In this document: in pieces, positions 13,027-64,000 of the stretch
How the letters are laid out: each line of letters starts with the position of its first letter
How positions within the stretch are numbered: position 1 is the first letter of the stretch
Position numbers and translations under genes: made by a program
The notes under the pieces: generated by a model
Database searches by the model: none
The model's input: only the letters and a program-made list of their open reading frames with translations
Told to the model about the DNA's origin: nothing
Assembly (NCBI GenBank): GCA_964520615.1
Contig: CAZFNL010000011.1
Span: 1,123 to 65,122, forward strand
Direction of reading: 5' to 3'
Source of the DNA: an uncultured Gammaproteobacteria bacterium
Lineage (GTDB): Bacteria; Patescibacteriota; Microgenomatia; 2-02-FULL-39-11
Length of the DNA: 64,000 nt

Positions 13027-13527
13027 TCAGCTCCTGATTTTATCTACCCTACATTCTTTTATCGCCCTATCCATTACGGAAAGCATTTCATTTATAATCT
13101 CTTCCGCTTCAGAAAGTGCCAGTGCCCTTAAGTTATGCTGAAAATAATGGAACACCTGATTCCTGCCTCTTTTCCAAACATTCCATAATTCATCGGCCAA
13201 CTCCCTATCACCACACTTTCTTACTATTTTGTCATATGCTGACCACCGGCGCAGCTGTCTTTCCAATTGAGGATTTAATGCCCTGCCAATTCTGAAATGA
13301 TCACTACCATATTCCTTGGCGCTTATAAATCCGCTATCAAGAAAAAACTTCTTGAGGAATCCTTCGTAGGCTTTAGCAAAAGGAAAAACCAAATAGGAAT
13401 AATCGGTTATGTTCTCATCGGGATGTTCTTTTAGATCATTTAGAAGGTATATTCCTTCGTCAATCAGTCCTTTTTGCCCATCCGAAAGATATTTCCATAA
13501 AAATGAGCTTTTGTCAATTGCAAACAT
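13027..13527 (-). CDS. Hypothetical protein with candidate HEPN motif (R-x4-H-x-Y)
   Basis: 166 aa. C-terminal half carries RNQVFHYF (Rx4HxY), the HEPN RNase signature. Gene lies 21 nt downstream of thrC on the same strand. Confidence 0.4.
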   Translation of the reverse strand: MFAIDKSSFLWKYLSDGQKGLIDEGIYLLNDLKEHPDENITDYSYLVFPFAKAYEGFLKKFFLDSGFISAKEYGSDHFRIGRALNPQLERQLRRWSAYDKIVRKCGDRELADELWNVWKRGRNQVFHYFQHNLRALALSEAEEIINEMLSVMDRAIKECRVDKIRS

Positions 13528-13548
13528 GTGATAGAAAGTATTCTAATT

Positions 13549-15081
13549 TTACCATCTTTTCAAAGATTGCATAATTGCTCTTTCCACTGATTCTTTTCCG
13601 GATGCATACTTTCTCTTGAATCTAATTTTTTTGTTTTTTAGATTGGCAATATTTGGAGGAATAGTAATGCTGGGAAAAAGAATGGTAATTTTTTTTAGGA
13701 TCTTGAACTCATCTTCTTTTGATCCAAAGCCTGATAATGCCTTATAGACATCTTTGGCAAACTTTGCCCAATGCGCGGTGGAACAAATTACTACCGGCTT
13801 AGGAGAGCCGTATTTATTCTGATACCTTTCTGCTACTGCTTGGGCTACTGCAGTATGCGGATCAAGAAGATAATTTGTTTCATTGTATGTCTTTTTTATT
13901 GTTGCTAAACAATCTTTATTTGATACCCAATCGGCAAAGAAATTTTCTTTTAATCTACGCAGTGTCTCACTGTCCACTTTGAAAAAATTGTTATTTTTCA
14001 ATTGACTCATCCAAAAATTCACCTTTTCAACATCATAAGTCAACTCATATAACAACCGCTCCAAATTACTACCCACTAGTATACTCATAGCTGGAGAGGG
14101 GGTTTTTACCAATTTTCTTTTTCTGATGTCATACACGCCTGTTTTCAGAAATTCACTATAGACATTATTTTCATTATTTGCACAGATAAGCCTGCCAACG
14201 GGCAATCCCATAATCTTGGCATAATAGGCGGCCAGAATATTGCCGAAATTCCCCGTAGGAACTGCAATATCTATCCTCTCCCCAAAACTTATCCTTTTCT
14301 CGTTAACCAAATCCAGATAACTTTTTACATGATAAACAATCTGAGGAAATAGCCTTCCCCAATTTATGGAATTGGCAGAAGAAAGTAAGACATTTTTCTC
14401 CAACAGCAGTTTTTCATTAAATTCCTTATCATTGAATAATTCCTTTACACTTTTTTGTACATCGTCAAAATTACCTTGAATTCCGTATACAGCAACATTT
14501 TTCCCTTTCTGCGTGATCATGGATAATTCCTGCAAACTTGATACTCCTTTATAGGGATAAAAGACCACAATTGATATCCCCTCCTTATTGGCATATCCTT
14601 CAAGAGCCGCTTTTCCCGTATCTCCTGAGGTGGCTACAACAATCAGGTAGTTTGGCTGTCTTAACCCTTTCTTTAACCGATGTATTTTTTCTTTTTTCTG
14701 GCTTTCGGTAAACAAATGAGTGGTAAACTGCAAAGCAATATCCTTAAACGCCAAAGTGGGACCATGCCAAAGTTCTAAAAGATATTGATTATCCCTAAGT
14801 TTAATTAAGGGAGTAATCCTCGTATCGTCAAAATTATCTGAATAGGCGCGATAAATCAGCTTTTTTAACAAATCATGATCAAAATCAGTCTTGAACAAAT
14901 CACAAACAGAAAGACACGTATCCTGATAGGAACCATTTAATAAAGGCTTTAACTTTTTTAATGAAAAATGTGGCAATCTCTCAGGTACAAAAAGTCCTCC
15001 ATCTCCTGCAATTCCTTTTAGTATCGTTTCAGAAAATGTGTATATTTTTTTGTCACCTCTTGTACTATGGTAGGAGATCAT
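13549..15081 (-). CDS. thrC: Threonine synthase (long form)
   Basis: PLP-lysine motif HGPTLAFKDIA at the expected position in a 510-aa protein. Overlaps thrB by 4 nt. Confidence 0.85.
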   Translation of the reverse strand: MISYHSTRGDKKIYTFSETILKGIAGDGGLFVPERLPHFSLKKLKPLLNGSYQDTCLSVCDLFKTDFDHDLLKKLIYRAYSDNFDDTRITPLIKLRDNQYLLELWHGPTLAFKDIALQFTTHLFTESQKKEKIHRLKKGLRQPNYLIVVATSGDTGKAALEGYANKEGISIVVFYPYKGVSSLQELSMITQKGKNVAVYGIQGNFDDVQKSVKELFNDKEFNEKLLLEKNVLLSSANSINWGRLFPQIVYHVKSYLDLVNEKRISFGERIDIAVPTGNFGNILAAYYAKIMGLPVGRLICANNENNVYSEFLKTGVYDIRKRKLVKTPSPAMSILVGSNLERLLYELTYDVEKVNFWMSQLKNNNFFKVDSETLRRLKENFFADWVSNKDCLATIKKTYNETNYLLDPHTAVAQAVAERYQNKYGSPKPVVICSTAHWAKFAKDVYKALSGFGSKEDEFKILKKITILFPSITIPPNIANLKNKKIRFKRKYASGKESVERAIMQSLKRW

Positions 15082-57306: not shown

Positions 57307-58443
57307 ATGAACAAACATTTGCTTTTATCAGACGGGTTTGTAGTACTGTTTGTAATCGGCTTTTTCTCCTTTGCTCTCTTCTCTTTTCCCACTAAAGTAT
57401 CTGCCACAGACTATCTCTTCGGCTCAGACGGTACAAATTTCTTCATCAAGCCCAAAGGCAGCAGCAATATCTTCCAGATGGACTCTACCGGCCACATCTC
57501 CACCGCTACGATAAATGCCTCAAATATATCTTCAGGACAATTCGGCTCAAACACAGGCGGAGGAAACTATGTTTTTTCCGGCAACGTCGGCATCGGGACG
57601 ACAGGACCGGTATACAAATTGGATGTGCAAGGTGGAGACATAAATGCTGCAAACAATTTGCGTGAGGGTGGCACTGCCATGTCCAGTAAATATGCCTATG
57701 TCGGCGGCGGAAATGCCTCAGGAACCTGGGGAATCAACGTCACAGGCAATGCGGCCACAGTAACAAATGGCATCTACACCACTAATATCGGCAGTTATGC
57801 TCCTTCGCTCACCGGAGGCGGAGCGTCAGGAACGTGGGGGATAAATGTTACGGGTAGCGCCGGAAGTGTCGCCTGGGGAAACGTCACCAGCAAACCATAT
57901 CCTGTCAACGGACAAAGCTGGAACTGGTCGGGACAAGGTGGACAACCAACCTGGCTGTGGGGAAGTAATGACGGTACAAATATGTATGTTTGGAACCCAA
58001 GCAACTTCAGTGTCAATTATGCCAACAGCGCAAACAGTGCTACCTATGCCACTTATATCAATGATGACAGTTACAATGCTAAACTTCATTGGTCAGGCCA
58101 AGGTGGACAACCAACCTGGCTGTGGGGAAGTAATGACGGACAAAACTTCTATGTCTGGAATCCAAGTAATTTCAACGTGAATAATGCCCTACATTCTGCA
58201 ACGATGGTTTGGGGCTTTAATGTTGGTCATGGCGTATGGACAACTGCAACTTGTCCTGCGGGACAAACTATTATAAGTGCCAAAAATATTGGTTATGGAA
58301 ACTGTGACTGGAATCCCGGATGGTGTCACCAGAATTTTTCCGGTTCCAGTGTCAATCAACGTGAAGATTGCAAAGGCGCAACTAGTTGTAGTCAAATATC
58401 ATGGGGGTGTTCGGGTAATTGCATAAATATAGTCTGTGATTAG
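57307..58443 (+). CDS. Secreted tail-fibre-like repeat protein with Cys-rich C-terminal domain
   Basis: Signal anchor and SGNVGIGTTGPVYKLDV (a motif common in tail-fibre-domain proteins). Duplicated GTWGINVTG units and a ~57-aa internal tandem repeat (WSGQGGQPTWLWGSNDG...VWNPSNF). C-terminal 90 aa carries 10 Cys. Confidence 0.5.
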   Translation: MNKHLLLSDGFVVLFVIGFFSFALFSFPTKVSATDYLFGSDGTNFFIKPKGSSNIFQMDSTGHISTATINASNISSGQFGSNTGGGNYVFSGNVGIGTTGPVYKLDVQGGDINAANNLREGGTAMSSKYAYVGGGNASGTWGINVTGNAATVTNGIYTTNIGSYAPSLTGGGASGTWGINVTGSAGSVAWGNVTSKPYPVNGQSWNWSGQGGQPTWLWGSNDGTNMYVWNPSNFSVNYANSANSATYATYINDDSYNAKLHWSGQGGQPTWLWGSNDGQNFYVWNPSNFNVNNALHSATMVWGFNVGHGVWTTATCPAGQTIISAKNIGYGNCDWNPGWCHQNFSGSSVNQREDCKGATSCSQISWGCSGNCINIVCD

Positions 58444-59346: not shown

Positions 59347-59408
59347 TGACCGCCAAACCAGGTGACCGTTCAAAGGTAGAAATTTATTTTCTCCCCGCCA
59401 CCACCACC

Positions 59409-59437
59409 CGCCCCGCTTGTCGCGGGGTTTTCTTTTT
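59409..59437 (+). terminator. Rho-independent terminator
   Basis: CGCCCCGC-TTGT-CGCGGGG followed by TTTTCTTTTT, 63 nt after the 59346 stop. Confidence 0.5.
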
Positions 59438-59645
59438 GCTTGCTTGCTGTCTTCCCAGTTTATCACACGCTCAAGGACTGCGGGCAGTTTGCAACTGTCC
59501 TCGCAAGTTGTGGTTCCCCTTCGTCCATCGACTTCGCTCAGGATGCTCAGGGTCACCATCAATCCTTGACTTCGTGTGCTGCCCTCCCATCAGCCAAGCA
59601 AGCAAAAGAGCTTGCAAATCATGGCAAGGAGGGAGGTGCCCCAAA

Positions 59646-59869
59646 TGGCACAAACGAAACGCTTCACGGCGAAGAAAGACCTCAAGCTCGACTGCGGTCA
59701 CACGATCAAAACCGGCGAGACCTTCGTCGTGACGAGCATCTACGCGTGCGAGAAAGATGCCGAGTGGCCGCTTGGCGTCCTCCGCGCCGCCTTTGAGAAA
59801 GCGCTTGCTAACCTGCTCAAGGAATTGAAGCCGGTGAGCGCCAAGGGCGGAGACGCAGAGCAAGAGTAA
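59646..59869 (+). CDS. Small hypothetical protein in the GC-rich block
   Basis: AGGAGGGAGG RBS 6 nt upstream of ATG 59646 (ORF track 59576-59869). 74 aa with GC3-rich codon usage, followed by a strong terminator. Confidence 0.4.
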
Positions 59870-59883
59870 TCGCTCTGCCTTCA

Positions 59884-59918
59884 GGGGCTAGGGAGAAATC
59901 TCTAGCCCCTATTTTTTT
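59884..59918 (+). terminator. Rho-independent terminator
   Basis: GGGGCTAGGGAGA-AATC-TCTAGCCCCT followed by ATTTTTTT. Confidence 0.7.
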
Positions 59919-60095
59919 GCTGCGCCTCTCCTTCCTTCCCTCCCATCCGCCCCCTCGTTTCCCCACCACTCTCCCTCCTCATTCATCCGCTCCTCGCTGC
60001 CTCTTAATCCCCACCTCTCGTCTACCTCTCTTTAGCTTCGCCATTCGTGCAAATCTCATCACTTCCACCACTGGTAATCTTCATCACCTATCTGT

Positions 60096-60237
60096 CACAC
60101 TGATTTCCCTCAGGCACTTTGGGCTGGCAAGTATTCGTAGCGGATTTCAGGCAAAAACGAGCGTGAAATAGGCAAAAGTGCCCTCCGAATACTTGCCAAT
60201 TTGACCACCGAAAAAGGGTCCCAGGGAAATCAGTGTG
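60096..60237. repeat. Nested inverted repeats (15-bp outer arms CACACTGATTTCCCT/AGGGAAATCAGTGTG; 12-bp inner arms GGCAAGTATTCG/CGAATACTTGCC)
   Basis: Read directly: outer arms at 60096-60110 and 60223-60237, inner arms at 60126-60137 and 60186-60197. Both are perfect and enclose a ~48-nt loop. Confidence 0.65.
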
Positions 60238-60329
60238 TCATTGACTCACACCATGATAAACCTTGACACAGATCCGATGGAAAACCGTCGAGGGACCACA
60301 AAAGAAACGTCTCTTTGAATTCTCCCAGG

Positions 60330-60360
60330 ATCGAACTCAATCGAACTCAATCGAACTCAT
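60330..60360. repeat. Three tandem 10-bp repeats (ATCGAACTCA), iteron-like
   Basis: GGATCGAACTCAATCGAACTCAATCGAACTCATCAGG. Flanked by GAATTCTCCC direct repeats at 60317 and 60423. Confidence 0.6.
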
Positions 60361-60980
60361 CAGGATGTGATTCTCAACCTGGCATCGCCACGCACCGGCA
60401 TCTGCGTGCGGAACAACCCTCGGAATTCTCCCCGCTTGTTTTCCTCTGCTCGGCGTCCCGCAACTACGTGCGGTCTCTCTCGCGTTTGTAATCTAAGCTG
60501 CAAATTCTTACCGCGAGTCTAACCCATCCAGAAAAAGCGTCAAGGGTAAAGTCGCTTTGCTCCCGGCTTCGCCGCCCTTGACGCTTTTTCTTGACCCGAT
60601 GGGTTTCTCTCCTCGCGGAATTTGCACCTTAACAAACGCAAAAGCGGATCGACCGCACCCAAGGCGGGACGACAACCCCTCGCAGATCGTCTTGCGGGGC
60701 AACAGCATTCCTACGGGAAGAGCGTTCCGCGTCTTAACAAGATGCCGGTGCCAAGAGAAGCCGATGCCACAATCTATCCAACCACGCATCGCCCTTGCGT
60801 TCTGCGTGGTCGGTTTTCACTTCACCTGAAAACGGAAAGGCAGTTAGGCACATTGGAAAGTGACTTGCGGACAAGCGCCCTGCAAACCTGCTTGACCAGA
60901 AAGTGAGTTCGTTCGTGTGTGTGTTGTTTTTTCTCATCAAGGGGAAGGGTGCGCCCCGAGAAAAGCACCCGGAGGTGAAT

Positions 60981-61157
60981 ATGTTCGTTCTGTGGCTACT
61001 GCACTTCTACAAACTGCGCTACGACGTGTTTGGAAACGCGCAAGCGTCTGTGAATCCGACCCGCGACGAATTGTTCAGTTTCTACGCGCTTCTTCTCACT
61101 CCTCAAGCCGTGATGACGGCGCTGTACGACTCCCAGGCGCGTCACATCTACTACTGA
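60981..61157 (+). CDS. Small hypothetical ORF with strong RBS
   Basis: GGAGGTG sits 4 nt upstream of ATG 60981 and the ORF is 58 aa. Coding status is uncertain. Confidence 0.3.
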   Translation: MFVLWLLHFYKLRYDVFGNAQASVNPTRDELFSFYALLLTPQAVMTALYDSQARHIYY

Positions 61158-61234
61158 AAAAAAGTTCGGGCTTGCAAGTGATCAGCCGTCACGCGCAAGC
61201 CCTAACATCCCAATCCAGTTGAAAGGACATTGAG

Positions 61235-61522
61235 ATGTCTAACGTGATTGTATCACTCATCGACCCATCCGGCAATCCCGATCCGAGCCTGGCGGCATAC
61301 ATGGCGGTGCAGGACTATGCCGCGATCCTCGCCGAGGAACTTGATCCTCGCGACGACCCTCACGCCGAGCACGGAGATTGGCAAACACCCAACGTACATG
61401 CTTGCTGCGACGGCAACATCGAAACGCAAATTACAAAGCGGCACGAACCAGGGACACCTTACATGTGTCCACACTGCCAGCAGCCCTACTGCGCTGACTG
61501 TGACATCGAGGTGCAGCGATGA
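61235..61522 (+). CDS. Small acidic Cys-rich hypothetical protein
   Basis: 95 aa with a C-terminal CCDG...MCPHCQQPYCADCD cluster (zinc-binding-like). The stop overlaps the next start (ATGA). Confidence 0.4.
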   Translation: MSNVIVSLIDPSGNPDPSLAAYMAVQDYAAILAEELDPRDDPHAEHGDWQTPNVHACCDGNIETQITKRHEPGTPYMCPHCQQPYCADCDIEVQR

Positions 61523-62493
61523 CCGCCCAGCAGATGAATATGTTTCCCCAAGGTGACGATTTGCCGCTCTTCAGCGGCACGCCCATCAAGGTGAGAATTC
61601 AGACCAGTGAGCCGCGCGAAGCCGAGAGCCAAGCGCGGCTTTCAATTTGTCCACTGTGCCAGGACACCGGCAAGGTCATCATTCAGCGCAAGCGAAGCGA
61701 GCCAGTGTTTTGCACGTGCGAAGCAGGACAAAGTGCGAAAGCAAAAGCACGGTTGGAACAACTCCCAGACTCCAAGCGTGTTAAGCGTTTACGCGAGATG
61801 TACGCCGAGCCAAGGGACGACACTGGACAGGTGCTGCGCGAGGCAATGGTGTGGGACAATCCCAAGGCGCGACTGGCTAGTATCGGTCCGCAAGCGTTGA
61901 CGCTCATCGAACTCTTGTCCGTGATTCTGGGCACGGAAGGACAGCCCGAGGTGGGGGCAAGAGTGCTTGCAGAGTGCAAGACTATCGCAGGTATTCGTAC
62001 CCGTTCCATCGCGGAATTGGTGACGAGCACAAAGCTGACACTGACGCGAGCCAAGCGTCTCGCCGCTGCGCTCGAACTGGGACGGCGAGCACTTCAGTGC
62101 AGTGAAGAGCGTCCTTACATCAAGTCTCCCGCCGATGCTGCTCAGCTTCTAGCCGAGATGGGCACACTTGACCAGGAGCAGATGCGGGTGCTGGCACTTG
62201 ACACCAAGAACCGCGTTATAGAGATCGTGACCGTCTATCAAGGAAGCGTGCACACAACAGTCATTCGCGTGTGTGAGCTAATGAAAGCAGCAATCCGCGT
62301 CAATGCAACCTCGATCATCGTTGCCCACTGTCATCCCTCCGGCGATCCGACTCCAAGTCCTGAAGACGTGGCGGTCACAACGGAGATTGTCAAAGCGGCA
62401 AAAATCCTTGACCTCGACTGTCTCGACCATCTGGTCATCGGCAGTTCGGGCAAGTTCGTCAGCTTGAAGGAAAGGGGGCTTGGATTCTCATGA
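61519..62493 (+). CDS. RadC-like JAB/MPN-domain protein with N-terminal zinc-ribbon extension
   Basis: C-terminal JAMM-like HCHPSGDPTPSPED motif preceded by a helix-hairpin-helix region (RadC/UPF0758 architecture). The first ~100 aa carry CPLCQDTGK...FCTCEAG. Confidence 0.8.
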   Translation: MTAQQMNMFPQGDDLPLFSGTPIKVRIQTSEPREAESQARLSICPLCQDTGKVIIQRKRSEPVFCTCEAGQSAKAKARLEQLPDSKRVKRLREMYAEPRDDTGQVLREAMVWDNPKARLASIGPQALTLIELLSVILGTEGQPEVGARVLAECKTIAGIRTRSIAELVTSTKLTLTRAKRLAAALELGRRALQCSEERPYIKSPADAAQLLAEMGTLDQEQMRVLALDTKNRVIEIVTVYQGSVHTTVIRVCELMKAAIRVNATSIIVAHCHPSGDPTPSPEDVAVTTEIVKAAKILDLDCLDHLVIGSSGKFVSLKERGLGFS

Positions 62494-63203
62494 TCACCCA
62501 AACTACCCCCGCCCAGCGCGAAGAACGCAAGCGCAAGCTGCAAACCCTCTCACAAGCTGAATATCAGAACTTGCGGAACCTCGTGCACTACATCGTGCCC
62601 CAAAAGTTCTGCGACCCCGACGATGCGCTCAGTCACGGTCTTTTGATCGCGATGGAAAAGTACGACGGACACGGCGAACTCAAGACGTACGTCATGCGCT
62701 GCGCCTATCTCTACTCGCTGCAGCAGGTCAAAAAGACCCGACTCAATATCACCTTCACCGACCTGCAAAACGAATCGGATTTCGAGGAATATTTGGACGA
62801 AGTACTTCCCTACCTCGAAGACCCGCGATACGTCGAAGCCGTCGACGAGTTATTCATTAGGCGCATCCATGAAGTGCTCGACAGCATGAGGAACTGGCGT
62901 TTCCGTCACACCACCCAGGAAGCCATCGCTGACGCTCACACGATCCTGGAGCTCTTGCGTGAGAACGCCAACCTGGGAAAAGGGATCGGTGTGGACGAAT
63001 ACGAAGACGGACCGCTCACGGCGTTCAAACGCGGCAAACCCCGTGTCGGACGCCCCATGCACAATACCAAGATCGTCCGCAAGAACATCGTCGATCATCT
63101 CACCGACGAGCTGCACACTACCAAGCAGGACATCAGCAGCGCATACAAGGCGCTGCGTCTCAGCACCCGACAGGCGCTCAATGAAGGATGGCTTCCGACA
63201 TGA
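62490..63203 (+). CDS. Hypothetical protein, weak sigma-70 region-2/region-4-like features
   Basis: DALSHGLLIAMEKYDGHGELKTYVMRCAYLYSL resembles sigma region 2. C-terminal ISSAYKALRLSTRQAL is HTH-like. Start overlaps the upstream stop. Confidence 0.3.
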   Translation: MITQTTPAQREERKRKLQTLSQAEYQNLRNLVHYIVPQKFCDPDDALSHGLLIAMEKYDGHGELKTYVMRCAYLYSLQQVKKTRLNITFTDLQNESDFEEYLDEVLPYLEDPRYVEAVDELFIRRIHEVLDSMRNWRFRHTTQEAIADAHTILELLRENANLGKGIGVDEYEDGPLTAFKRGKPRVGRPMHNTKIVRKNIVDHLTDELHTTKQDISSAYKALRLSTRQALNEGWLPT

Positions 63204-63469
63204 CCATCTATCTTCTCCACATTCAGCCCTGCTATAAGCACGCACGGCACTACCTGGGCATCACGAAAGATCTCGACGCGCGGTTGCAGCTTCATCGCGA
63301 AGGGAGAGCCGCACGACTGACCCAGGTGTGTGTCGAGAGTGGGCGTGTGTTACAACTGGTTCGAACGTGGGAAGGCAGTCGCGACGACGAACGACGATTG
63401 AAGAATCAAAAGAACTCGCCACGGCTGTGTCCTCTGTGTAATCCCAAGTTGAAAGGAGTCGAATGCTAG
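63188..63469 (+). CDS. Stand-alone GIY-YIG nuclease-domain protein
   Basis: IYLLHIQPCYKHARHYLGITKDLDARLQLHREG, with GIY-YIG-like Y...Y(L)G, Arg and Glu positions. 93 aa. Confidence 0.65.
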   Translation: MASDMTIYLLHIQPCYKHARHYLGITKDLDARLQLHREGRAARLTQVCVESGRVLQLVRTWEGSRDDERRLKNQKNSPRLCPLCNPKLKGVEC

Positions 63470-63789
63470 TTGACCAACCAAGTCCGCAACAATACTTGAA
63501 GGTTATCTTGTGCGAAGAAATTGGGCTGTCCGAGAAATCGGCAGCCCGTCTCATTCAAGAGTACGGTGAGCTTGCAGTGCAGCGTCACGCGATGTATTGC
63601 CTCTGGATGATGAGCCAGGGTAAAGTGCACGTTCCGCCGGCGTGGTTGACCGCATCTTTGAAAGGCGATTGGCGCGCACCGTACGGAATGCCAAGCGATT
63701 GGTTGCCGACGGTGCTGCATTTCCGTGTCGACGAGAACACGTTCGTGGAGTTCACGCGTGAGGTGCGTGACGAGAAAAAGGCAACTTGA
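63463..63789 (+). CDS. Hypothetical protein (last gene of the overlapping GC-rich operon)
   Basis: 108 aa. Start overlaps the upstream stop and the gene is followed by a terminator. Confidence 0.35.
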   Translation: MLVDQPSPQQYLKVILCEEIGLSEKSAARLIQEYGELAVQRHAMYCLWMMSQGKVHVPPAWLTASLKGDWRAPYGMPSDWLPTVLHFRVDENTFVEFTREVRDEKKAT

Positions 63790-63796
63790 ACACCGA

Positions 63797-63838
63797 AGCC
63801 CCGGAAGCAGCGATGCTTCTGGGGCTATTTTTATTTTG
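63797..63838 (+). terminator. Rho-independent terminator
   Basis: GCCCCGGAAGC-AGCGAT-GCTTCTGGGGC followed by TATTTTTATTTT. Confidence 0.6.
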
Positions 63839-64000
63839 CCACTTTTGCCTCCTCCACTTCTTGGCACACCTCCTATTGACTCCGCAGTTCCCACCTGATA
63901 ATCTACCTTCATGATTACCAAAAAGGATGTGGAAGAAACAGTCAACACCGGAATCGCCGGATTACGCAAAGAATTCAAGGAAGAAATGTCGTCGATGCGC

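Follow-up and report, generated by a model that had tools for sequence, protein, structure and literature searches.

The window analysed here is a 64,000-nt stretch of contig CAZFNL010000011.1 (assembly GCA_964520615.1). Five plus-strand genes towards its right-hand end, p1 to p5 (61235-63789), overlap at every junction and are followed by a strong terminator. On balance, and with little more than even confidence, we read these genes, probably together with a small upstream open reading frame (ORF), p0, as an early operon by which an integrative mobile element from a Chloroflexota family establishes itself; the element is probably conjugative or mobilizable, or uses rolling-circle replication. 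The genes are real and their domains identifiable (p2 is a RadC protein, p3 resembles sigma factors and p4 is a GIY-YIG protein), they co-occur as a mosaic in a mobile context, and a conserved hairpin with promoter-like boxes on only one of its strands lies upstream.

All five ORFs listed in the initial annotation of the window are present at their coordinates, and conserved homologues for each distinguish them from chance ORFs: a five-member cluster plus the loci surveyed below for p1, thousands for p2, 67 for p3, 74 for p5, and for p4 homologues in the loci and in viral contigs. The p1/p2 and p2/p3 junctions are ATGA overlaps, and p4 and p5 overlap by 7 nt. Overlap at all junctions had been annotated correctly, except for the 16 nt assigned to p3/p4: in homologues and in the database gene call, p4 starts at ATG 63200 (MTIYLL...). 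Judged by these starts, the p3/p4 junction is most likely an ATGA overlap too, with a p4 of 89 aa. The predicted strong terminator (63797-63838, plus strand) was borne out; it consists of a 13-bp stem (63797-63826) with 8 GC pairs and a 4-nt loop, followed by the T-run ATTTTTATTT, and its region is conserved with L001 and L008-L010 (L-numbers denote fetched related loci, and W the window among them). Between the hairpin and p1 lies p0 (60981-61157, plus strand), a 58-aa ORF with the ribosome-binding site GGAGGTG. Compared with L001 it shows an in-frame 3-nt indel and coding-like conservation, and it is kept upstream of p1 in L001, L027 and L028 (67-76% identity by tblastn); a Pfam search with p0 gave no match. 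It is possibly the first gene of the operon.

For a survey of gene neighbourhoods, 33 loci were fetched via relatives of p2, p3 and p5, and the window proteins and a recurrent J-domain protein (J) were mapped onto them. With duplicates collapsed, about 12 independent loci hold at least two module genes, in varying order. The arrangement p0-p1-RadC-p3 (up to the contig end) is found in L027, p0-p1-RadC-J-p5 in L001 and L028, p1-RadC-J-p5 in L002, a p1 fusion followed by RadC in L003, and RadC-J-p5 in L032. L004 reads p3-RadC-p4 and, further on, a p5-like gene; L025 reads RadC-p4-p3-J and L026 p3-J, each with p5 further on; L011/L021 read p3-p4-p5 with a frameshifted p4. In sister elements the RadC slot is held by a UvrD helicase and DnaG primase pair: L008 reads UvrD helicase-DnaG primase-p3-J-p5, with J frameshifted, and L013, L015, L016, L022 and L023 read 470-aa protein-UvrD-primase-p3, L015 beginning within UvrD. 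The five genes of the window are one permutation of a mosaic pool made up of p1-RadC, p3, p4, the J-domain protein and p5, and not a fixed system. Two variants occur on separate contigs of a single Chloroflexota metagenome-assembled genome (MAG), GCA_009712145.1, namely helicase-primase-p3-J-p5 (L008) and hairpin-RadC-J-p5 (L032).

These arrangements modify the earlier picture. The initial annotation had proposed a single functional module; what stands is a tightly coupled transcription unit on foreign DNA, and what falls is a module of five fixed components, gene order and content being mosaic. Its proposal depended on the genes keeping company elsewhere, and the set does recur in the independent loci counted above. 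Homology to routine phage replication genes, which it had named as evidence to the contrary, exists in part, in the UvrD and DnaG pair at the RadC position. RadC and the GIY-YIG protein do not form a strict pair, since p4 occurs without RadC in L011/L021 and RadC without p4 in L001, L002 and L032. As it had supposed, this is not a described system: Pfam, NCBIfam, PHROGs and PADLOC returned no system match.

Among the relatives, L001 (RadC 86% identical) also encodes a serine recombinase, an HTH_17 protein, a Replic_Relax protein (6.7e-28) and a weak match to HerA/FtsK-type ATPases. Tyrosine integrases are found in L003, L004 and L027, a type I restriction-modification system in L032, and a TIR-WD40 protein near some relatives. 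The integrases and a helix-turn-helix repressor-like gene near some loci would also suit a temperate phage, of which the island would be the prophage and the operon the routine early or replication region. Canonical RadC, p4 homologues and RadC-J pairs are indeed present in viral contigs: p2 matches PHROG 10276 (2.3e-32), RadC and p4 homologues occur in IMG/VR contigs, with RadC and J adjacent in L045 and L049, and a p4 homologue lies among the small early genes of Bradyrhizobium phage BDU-MI-1. We nevertheless consider a prophage module improbable. Alignments of p3 and p5 found nothing in 2.9 million viral contigs, and ten large neighbouring proteins had neither a structural nor any other informative match in PHROGs. 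Moreover, L001 carries Replic_Relax and a serine recombinase, not a phage module, and the RadC genes of viral contigs all lack the N-terminal extension of p2, the motif of which is found in L039-L041 in a separate neighbouring ORF.

The module sits on foreign DNA of Chloroflexota type, because the base composition changes abruptly and the relatives change with it. The guanine-plus-cytosine (GC) content steps from ~40% to ~55% at ~59.2-59.4 kb of the window. The low-GC part (1-59346, 40% GC) is Patescibacteria DNA, three window proteins clustering with named Patescibacteria proteins, e.g. MCL5797936.1 and MCL5797950.1. In the remaining 4.6 kb (59400-64000, 55% GC), the only relatives of anything from the gene pm1 (59645) onwards come from Chloroflexota MAGs or from metagenome contigs, with GC contents of 49-62%. 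The junction falls 3′ of the stop codon of a 290-aa host ORF (59346) and of a terminator-like hairpin (59410-59428), and the interval 59.3-59.6 kb is bridged by none of the short independent Logan contigs from the same runs, which end at ~57.45 kb or begin at 62.08 kb. An island of 55% GC on a Patescibacteria contig of 40% GC has two possible origins, a chimeric assembly or a cross-phylum transfer.

A palindrome upstream of the RadC-type loci

The initial annotation had noted structured non-coding DNA upstream of the operon, and the structure proved much stronger than it described: in addition to a hairpin at 60093-60240, a 396-nt imperfect palindrome (60375-60770, minus strand) folds as one rod and is a candidate promoter or priming site of the Frpo/ssi/sso type. 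Calculated with DNA parameters, its folding energy is -104.5 kcal/mol (z score -10.5), with 135 of 135 pairs on one axis; the best 300-nt window within it reaches -77.3 kcal/mol. A rod hairpin is present upstream of all seven RadC-type loci with upstream sequence (W, L001, L027, L028, L032, L004 and L025), with lengths of 277-397 nt, energies of -81 to -105 kcal/mol and z scores of -6.7 to -16. Absolute folding energy was dropped as a detector because it is unspecific at 55-60% GC, a composition at which many coding windows have values under -70 kcal/mol, and the number of pairs on one axis was counted in its place. When 6442 windows of 300 nt from the window and L001-L033 (about 390 kb) were scanned, the mean was 27 ± 9.5 pairs, and the seven RadC-module intergenic regions ranked at the top with 82-114. 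The distance from the apex to the first module gene is 663-681 nt in five of the seven hairpins. Between subgroups the hairpin sequences have diverged past blastn detection; in the RNAalifold consensus, 21 of 50 pairs show compensatory double changes.

Every one of the seven hairpins carries a -35/-10-like pair (TTGACx, 15-16 nt, TAGACT or TATGCT) on the minus strand, within the arm farther from the operon, and none carries one on the plus strand. In the window the boxes read TTGACG-16 nt-TAGACT (60543->60516). They are clear in W, L001, L027, L028 and L032 and weaker in L025 and L004, and the -10 box lies at an internal loop. On duplex DNA these minus-strand boxes would fire away from the operon, whereas with the minus strand single-stranded the proximal arm would become the template into p0-p5.

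A published screen for single-stranded DNA (ssDNA) promoters used a 300-nt window with dG < -75 kcal/mol (PMC12672017), and -35/-10 boxes reconstituted upstream of leading-region operons serve as the further criterion for such promoters (PMC12672017; PMC11541004). The 396-nt hairpin satisfies these published in silico criteria in its energy, in its rebuilt -35/-10 boxes and in a template arm that leads into the genes. A blastn search (word 11) with the hairpin against 72,556 plasmids returned no match; published class 2 and class 3 ssDNA promoters likewise lack sequence similarity to known Frpo/ssi (PMC12672017). Nothing in Rfam reached gathering thresholds. By this analysis, the conserved hairpin looks like a single-strand promoter of Frpo/ssi geometry and may be active as ssDNA.

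The palindrome could instead work as RNA (a structured leader or an RNase III site) or as a conventional divergent promoter or operator, or it could be a repeat resembling a miniature inverted-repeat transposable element (MITE) that lies there by chance, the operon then being constitutive or repressor-controlled; we regard this as possible, if doubtful. Covariation is the same for RNA and DNA hairpins, the minus-strand boxes would fire leftward on double-stranded DNA, and gene callers predict small ORFs on the minus strand of the 5′ arm (L001, L027). The differences between W and L001 also fit neutral decay: substitutions at 31 of 123 unpaired as against 17 of 270 paired positions were considered as a sign of selection and rejected, since a structure derived from W biases changes in the W lineage towards unpaired positions. 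In the about 390 kb scanned, however, each locus has a single copy, and this always precedes the RadC module, which argues against MITE-like dispersal. Boxes on one strand in seven of seven diverged hairpins, with the -10 at the internal loop, also speak against this alternative, as does the absence of a match to an Rfam family.

The encoded proteins

The RadC/JAB call made for p2 (61519-62493, plus strand; 324 aa) was confirmed by matches to Pfam RadC PF04002 (124.9 bits, cut-off 22.1; 2.1e-36) and to TIGR00608 (154.8 bits, above the cut-off of 133.85), with a full-length alignment that covers residues 115-320. The score against the equivalog NF000642 is 166.1 bits, under its cut-off of 180. 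The protein comprises, in order, QMNMF, DDLPLFSGTP, a zinc ribbon (CPLC...CTC), a helical linker, a putative helix-hairpin-helix (HhH) module (PF20582, UPF0758_N; 19.3 bits, E=0.0012, below the cut-off of 27.1) and the JAB domain. The JAB/MPN+ metal motif E...HxHx7Sx2D is intact, with E220, H270, H272, S280 and D283 invariant among 22 aligned sequences. The core is 54-55% identical to chromosomal Chloroflexota RadC, from which p2 is set apart by a ~110-aa N-terminal extension that holds the four-Cys zinc ribbon (CPxC...CxC) and a short motif. No PLSDB plasmid encodes this extension. The N-terminal domain was also compared with the zinc ribbon of the L008 primase as a possible relative, and no similarity was found.

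The short motif lies in the N-terminal peptide MTAQQMNMFPQGDDLPLFSG as Q5-M-N-M-F9. Relatives of p2 have QLSLF, QLNLF, QLTLF, QINMF or QLNMF, so that the pattern Q-phi-x-[LM]-F keeps its [LM]F in all 19 and its Q in 15 of 19. The canonical beta-clamp-binding motif is Q-phi-x-[L/M]-[F/L], and Hda carries one at its disordered N-terminus (PMC11139829). By its resemblance to this pattern, QMNMF is a candidate motif of the beta-clamp-binding type at the disordered N-terminus of p2, through which the protein may bind the clamp. The peptide that opens p2, Q-x-x-M-F-P-x-G-D-D-L-P-L-F-S, recurs in otherwise unrelated IMG/VR proteins (L039 8922-9119; L041 8474-9235, in the C-terminal part; L040 4407-4517). 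These are encoded directly after a canonical short RadC; in the two loci whose ORFs were inspected, L039 and L041, a ParB-like gene follows them directly. Because the same peptide is found in otherwise unrelated proteins beside RadC, it behaves as a portable short linear motif tied to RadC neighbourhoods.

Directly upstream, p1 (61235-61522, plus strand) encodes a 95-aa His/Cys-rich putative metal-binding protein with eight candidate metal ligands, H43, H46, H55, C57, C78, C81, C86 and C89, all invariant in alignment A5. It precedes RadC with ATGA coupling in W, L001 and L002 and is also present in L027 and L028; in L003 a p1-like domain forms the C-terminus of a 268-aa protein upstream of RadC. 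By these sequence relationships, p1 is a dedicated upstream partner of the extended RadC. It received no family assignment: Pfam gave only a weak match to the C1_4 zinc finger, and p1 is not DUF3085. That the 268-aa protein of L003 might be a p3-p1 fusion was rejected (hhalign probability 0.1%), only its C-terminus being p1-like.

The 237-aa protein p3 (62490-63203, plus strand) resembles a divergent extracytoplasmic function (ECF) sigma factor, with a sigma-2-like N-terminus, a central insert and a sigma-4-like C-terminus; the family-specific insert carries DPRYVEAVDE and NLGKGIGVDEYE. Its earlier label as sigma-like is backed by the fold and by distant family members, and a sequence search of PDB gave no match. 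We take p3 to be a member of a small orphan ECF-sigma-like family that, judging from these resemblances, may act as a sigma factor.

Downstream of it, p4 (63200-63469, plus strand; 93 aa if started at ATG 63188) is an 89-aa stand-alone GIY-YIG domain with a C-terminal CPLC. Its score against Pfam GIY-YIG (PF01541) is 21.6-21.7 bits, marginally under the cut-off of 22.6. Taken as a family, eight of eight members match GIY-YIG (best 1e-5), the family profile matches the UPF0213 structures 1zg2 (3e-5; 3.3e-5 best) and 1ywl (1e-4), and the catalytic residues Y4, Y18, G20, R28, E64 and N69 are invariant, so that the earlier GIY-YIG call holds at superfamily level. The p4 gene is split between two frames in L011 (846-1087) and L021 (103-344), and the J-domain gene in L008 (10908-11436), L009 and L010; found on independent contigs, these split genes are either decaying accessory genes or recurrent frameshifts. 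A 94-aa gene that follows RadC in L028 was considered as a p4 homologue and rejected, p4 being represented there only by a 28-aa remnant upstream of that gene. The last gene, p5 (63463-63789, plus strand), is constant in the module and encodes a 108-aa helical protein for which fold comparison gave no informative match.

A nuclease, a metalloenzyme and small proteins, translationally coupled on a mobile island, might also form a cargo defence or toxin-antitoxin system, in which the GIY-YIG protein or RadC would be the effector and the small proteins sensors or antitoxins. The restriction-modification system and the TIR-WD40 protein near relatives could be taken in the same sense, as could weak generic JAB (Cap3-like) matches of p2 in PADLOC-DB (best E=0.0013). 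We judge such a system highly unlikely, however. PADLOC-DB gave nothing beyond those generic matches, and nothing for p1, p3, p4 or p5, and Pfam detected no CbtA/CbeA-type toxin-antitoxin or DUF3085 family in p1, p3, p4 and p5 (E <= 1) or in p0 (E <= 0.1). Many loci lack the putative effector p4 or have it frameshifted, whereas p3 and p5 persist, and the module occupies a fixed place behind the conserved hairpin beside replication-type genes, not a variable cargo slot. The defence or toxin option of the initial annotation is set aside on these grounds. Among the possibilities it had listed, establishment in a leading region fits best, given the Frpo-like hairpin and the Replic_Relax protein, weak ATPase match and serine recombinase of L001.

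A model for establishment

According to the model, the minus strand would become single-stranded after transfer or displacement, and the palindrome at 60375-60770 would fold into a rod that rebuilds a duplex -35/-10. Host RNA polymerase would start there and follow the template arm into p0-p5, giving expression at once and possibly, in addition, a primer from which the complementary strand is synthesised, as in Frpo/ssi of F-like plasmids. The RadC-type JAB metalloenzyme p2, tethered to the host sliding clamp via its N-terminal Q-x-x-M-F, would then process element DNA at primer or clamp sites with its zinc ribbon and p1; in sister elements a UvrD-like helicase and a DnaG-like primase take its position. 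The ECF-like sigma factor p3 would redirect RNA polymerase to element promoters, p4 would be a small accessory GIY-YIG nuclease, the gene for which has often been lost or frameshifted, and p5 a conserved helical partner. What we infer in this scheme is that the hairpin is active as a promoter on ssDNA, that p2 binds the clamp, that p3 works as a sigma factor, and what RadC does biochemically.

The model fits published views of the parts concerned. RadC is predicted to process nucleic acids and, like DnaG primase, is a domain of the polyvalent proteins of conjugative elements (PMC5512222), conversion of single- to double-stranded DNA requires UvrD of the recipient (PMC10085688), and a study of broad-host-range plasmids linked RadC with a small adjacent partner, DUF3085 (PMC12826799). 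From the clamp motif and zinc ribbon, the slot equivalent to helicase and primase, and the hairpin upstream comes the hypothesis that RadC works at primer sites loaded with the clamp while incoming DNA is converted from single- to double-stranded form.

The operon, expressed first on entry, may alternatively serve to neutralise host immunity through its enzymes and small proteins; anti-defence genes are enriched in operons that Frpo-type promoters precede in leading regions (PMC11541004). The hairpin geometry would suit a leading region, the variable content, with p4 and J often lost, is typical of arms-race genes, and the plasmid linkage of RadC with adjacent DUF3085 (PMC12826799) can be read in the same way. 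We think an anti-defence cassette rather unlikely all the same. In library searches no member matched a known anti-defence family, the positional equivalents are helicase and primase, not Ard/Acr-type genes, and the clamp motif and the sigma-like protein suggest DNA transactions and transcription. Moreover, an anti-defence role overlaps with establishment instead of excluding it. None of the rival readings considered here and above has specific support.

Set against known systems, the establishment operon would share with Frpo/ssi of the leading regions of F, ColIb-P9 and pESBL, and with the related sso of rolling-circle plasmids and ICEBs1, a sizeable stem-loop (dG < -75 kcal/mol, at least about 300 nt) in the intergenic DNA just before the genes, -35/-10 boxes rebuilt in the stem and a folded strand that is the template for the genes. 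Unlike those elements, the hairpin has no sequence similarity to plasmids, lies in DNA of Chloroflexota type and is as yet a candidate promoter; its downstream genes are RadC, sigma-like and GIY-YIG, whereas theirs are ssb, psiB and ardA. In common with the RadC family (PF04002/TIGR00608), which includes E. coli YeeS/YkfG/YfjY, the polyvalent proteins of conjugative elements and plasmid RadC with DUF3085, p2 has a JAB core with an intact metal motif, preceded by a putative HhH module, and like mobile-element RadC it resides on a mobile element, next to the gene of a small partner protein. It differs from them in its ~110-aa N-terminal extension and in a partner, p1, that is not DUF3085, and, unlike the RadC-like genes of E. 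coli cryptic prophages, it has no CbtA/CbeA-type toxin-antitoxin genes beside it. Element-encoded sigma-like regulators include Tn916 Orf7, the phage ArpU/RinA-type proteins and T4 gp55. Compared with ECF (group 4) sigma factors, p3 falls under every curated threshold, has a ~100-aa family-specific insert between its domains, belongs to a tiny, isolated family (56 clusters) and has no identified anti-sigma partner. Finally, p4 shares with UPF0213/YhbQ-type proteins a single ~90-aa GIY-YIG domain with conserved Tyr, Tyr-x-Gly, Arg, Glu and Asn, but has an additional C-terminal CPxC, belongs to mobile elements and phages instead of housekeeping genes and scores just under the Pfam cut-off. All components come from known superfamilies, and early operons of mobile elements are a known kind; what is new is the extended clamp-motif RadC with its partner p1, the isolated sigma-like family and a conserved class of hairpins in Chloroflexota.

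Several points weigh against the establishment model. The window shows no origin of transfer (oriT), relaxase or transfer gene and includes only 4.6 kb of the island, and Replic_Relax and the ATPase were seen in one relative only, L001, so that ssDNA transfer by the element family is at most probable. The host part of the contig is Patescibacteria, which leaves the true host of the element and the contiguity uncertain. At the hairpin, the -10 boxes are imperfect (TAGACT, TATGCT), those of L004 are poor, and the promoter rules of Chloroflexota are assumed to be sigma-70-like; the pattern of W and L001 substitutions is compatible with neutral decay of a palindrome, and the hairpin could act as RNA or as an ordinary leftward promoter on double-stranded DNA. 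The clamp motif is a short pattern and a candidate by sequence only, the p3 of the window reaches no curated sigma threshold, and we know of no system in which a biochemical activity of RadC has been demonstrated.

To our knowledge, ssDNA promoters have so far been shown only in enterobacterial plasmids, with none described in Chloroflexota, and RadC is among the most widespread bacterial proteins without an accepted function. If the model is correct, RadC would have a definite function open to test, the conversion or processing of single-stranded DNA from an incoming element. The hairpins, if ssDNA promoters, would carry that class into a distant phylum, and the sigma-like proteins encoded by mobile elements would gain an isolated branch in the p3 family. 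The junction, if real, would represent a large mobile element from Chloroflexota crossing into a bacterium of the candidate phyla radiation. Taken jointly, these readings would have a new Frpo-like class of hairpin promoter, outside the classical plasmid groups, drive an establishment operon composed of a clamp-tethered zinc-ribbon RadC, a metal-binding partner and an orphan ECF-like sigma factor, with a Patescibacteria junction that may be genuine; we regard this whole combination as unlikely.

Other features around the junction and in related loci

On the host side of the junction, 57307-58443 encodes a 378-aa repetitive Gly/Asn/Ser/Trp-rich protein whose N-terminus is signal-like and whose C-terminus is rich in Cys. 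It was seen on this contig only; independent short assemblies break at this gene. Its Pfam match to H-NS (23.7 bits, cut-off 25.6), which involves 16 residues only, looks spurious.

The first recognisable gene of the island is pm1 (59645-59869, plus strand), which encodes 74 aa from ATG 59645, preceded by the ribosome-binding site AGGGAGG; the database call is 82 aa from 59621. A terminator follows at 59883-59910. The protein belongs to a 10-member metagenome cluster, one member of which shares a 5211-nt contig with the p3 homologue P0148, and a Pfam search with it gave no match. A sub-threshold Rfam match to the small RNA BjrC68 (59836-59918; 33.9 bits, gathering score 39) was rejected, as it coincides with the 3′ end of pm1 and the terminator hairpin. 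Between that terminator and the hairpin at 60093-60240 there is a C/T-rich polypyrimidine tract of ~170 nt on the plus strand (59920-60090; GC skew about -0.46).

The hairpin at 60093-60240 itself is ~150 nt long and consists of the nested inverted repeats I1/I2 (-64.9 kcal/mol, z -6.45). It is not conserved in L001, where homology begins at 60367. Right before the 396-nt hairpin, three exact tandem copies of ATCGAACTCA follow one another with a 10-nt period (60330-60359), again not conserved in L001; these repeats look like iterons or binding sites. In L022, an element of the primase type, a 485-aa ORF downstream of the p3 region (13313-14770) resembles, by eye, a group II intron reverse transcriptase/maturase.

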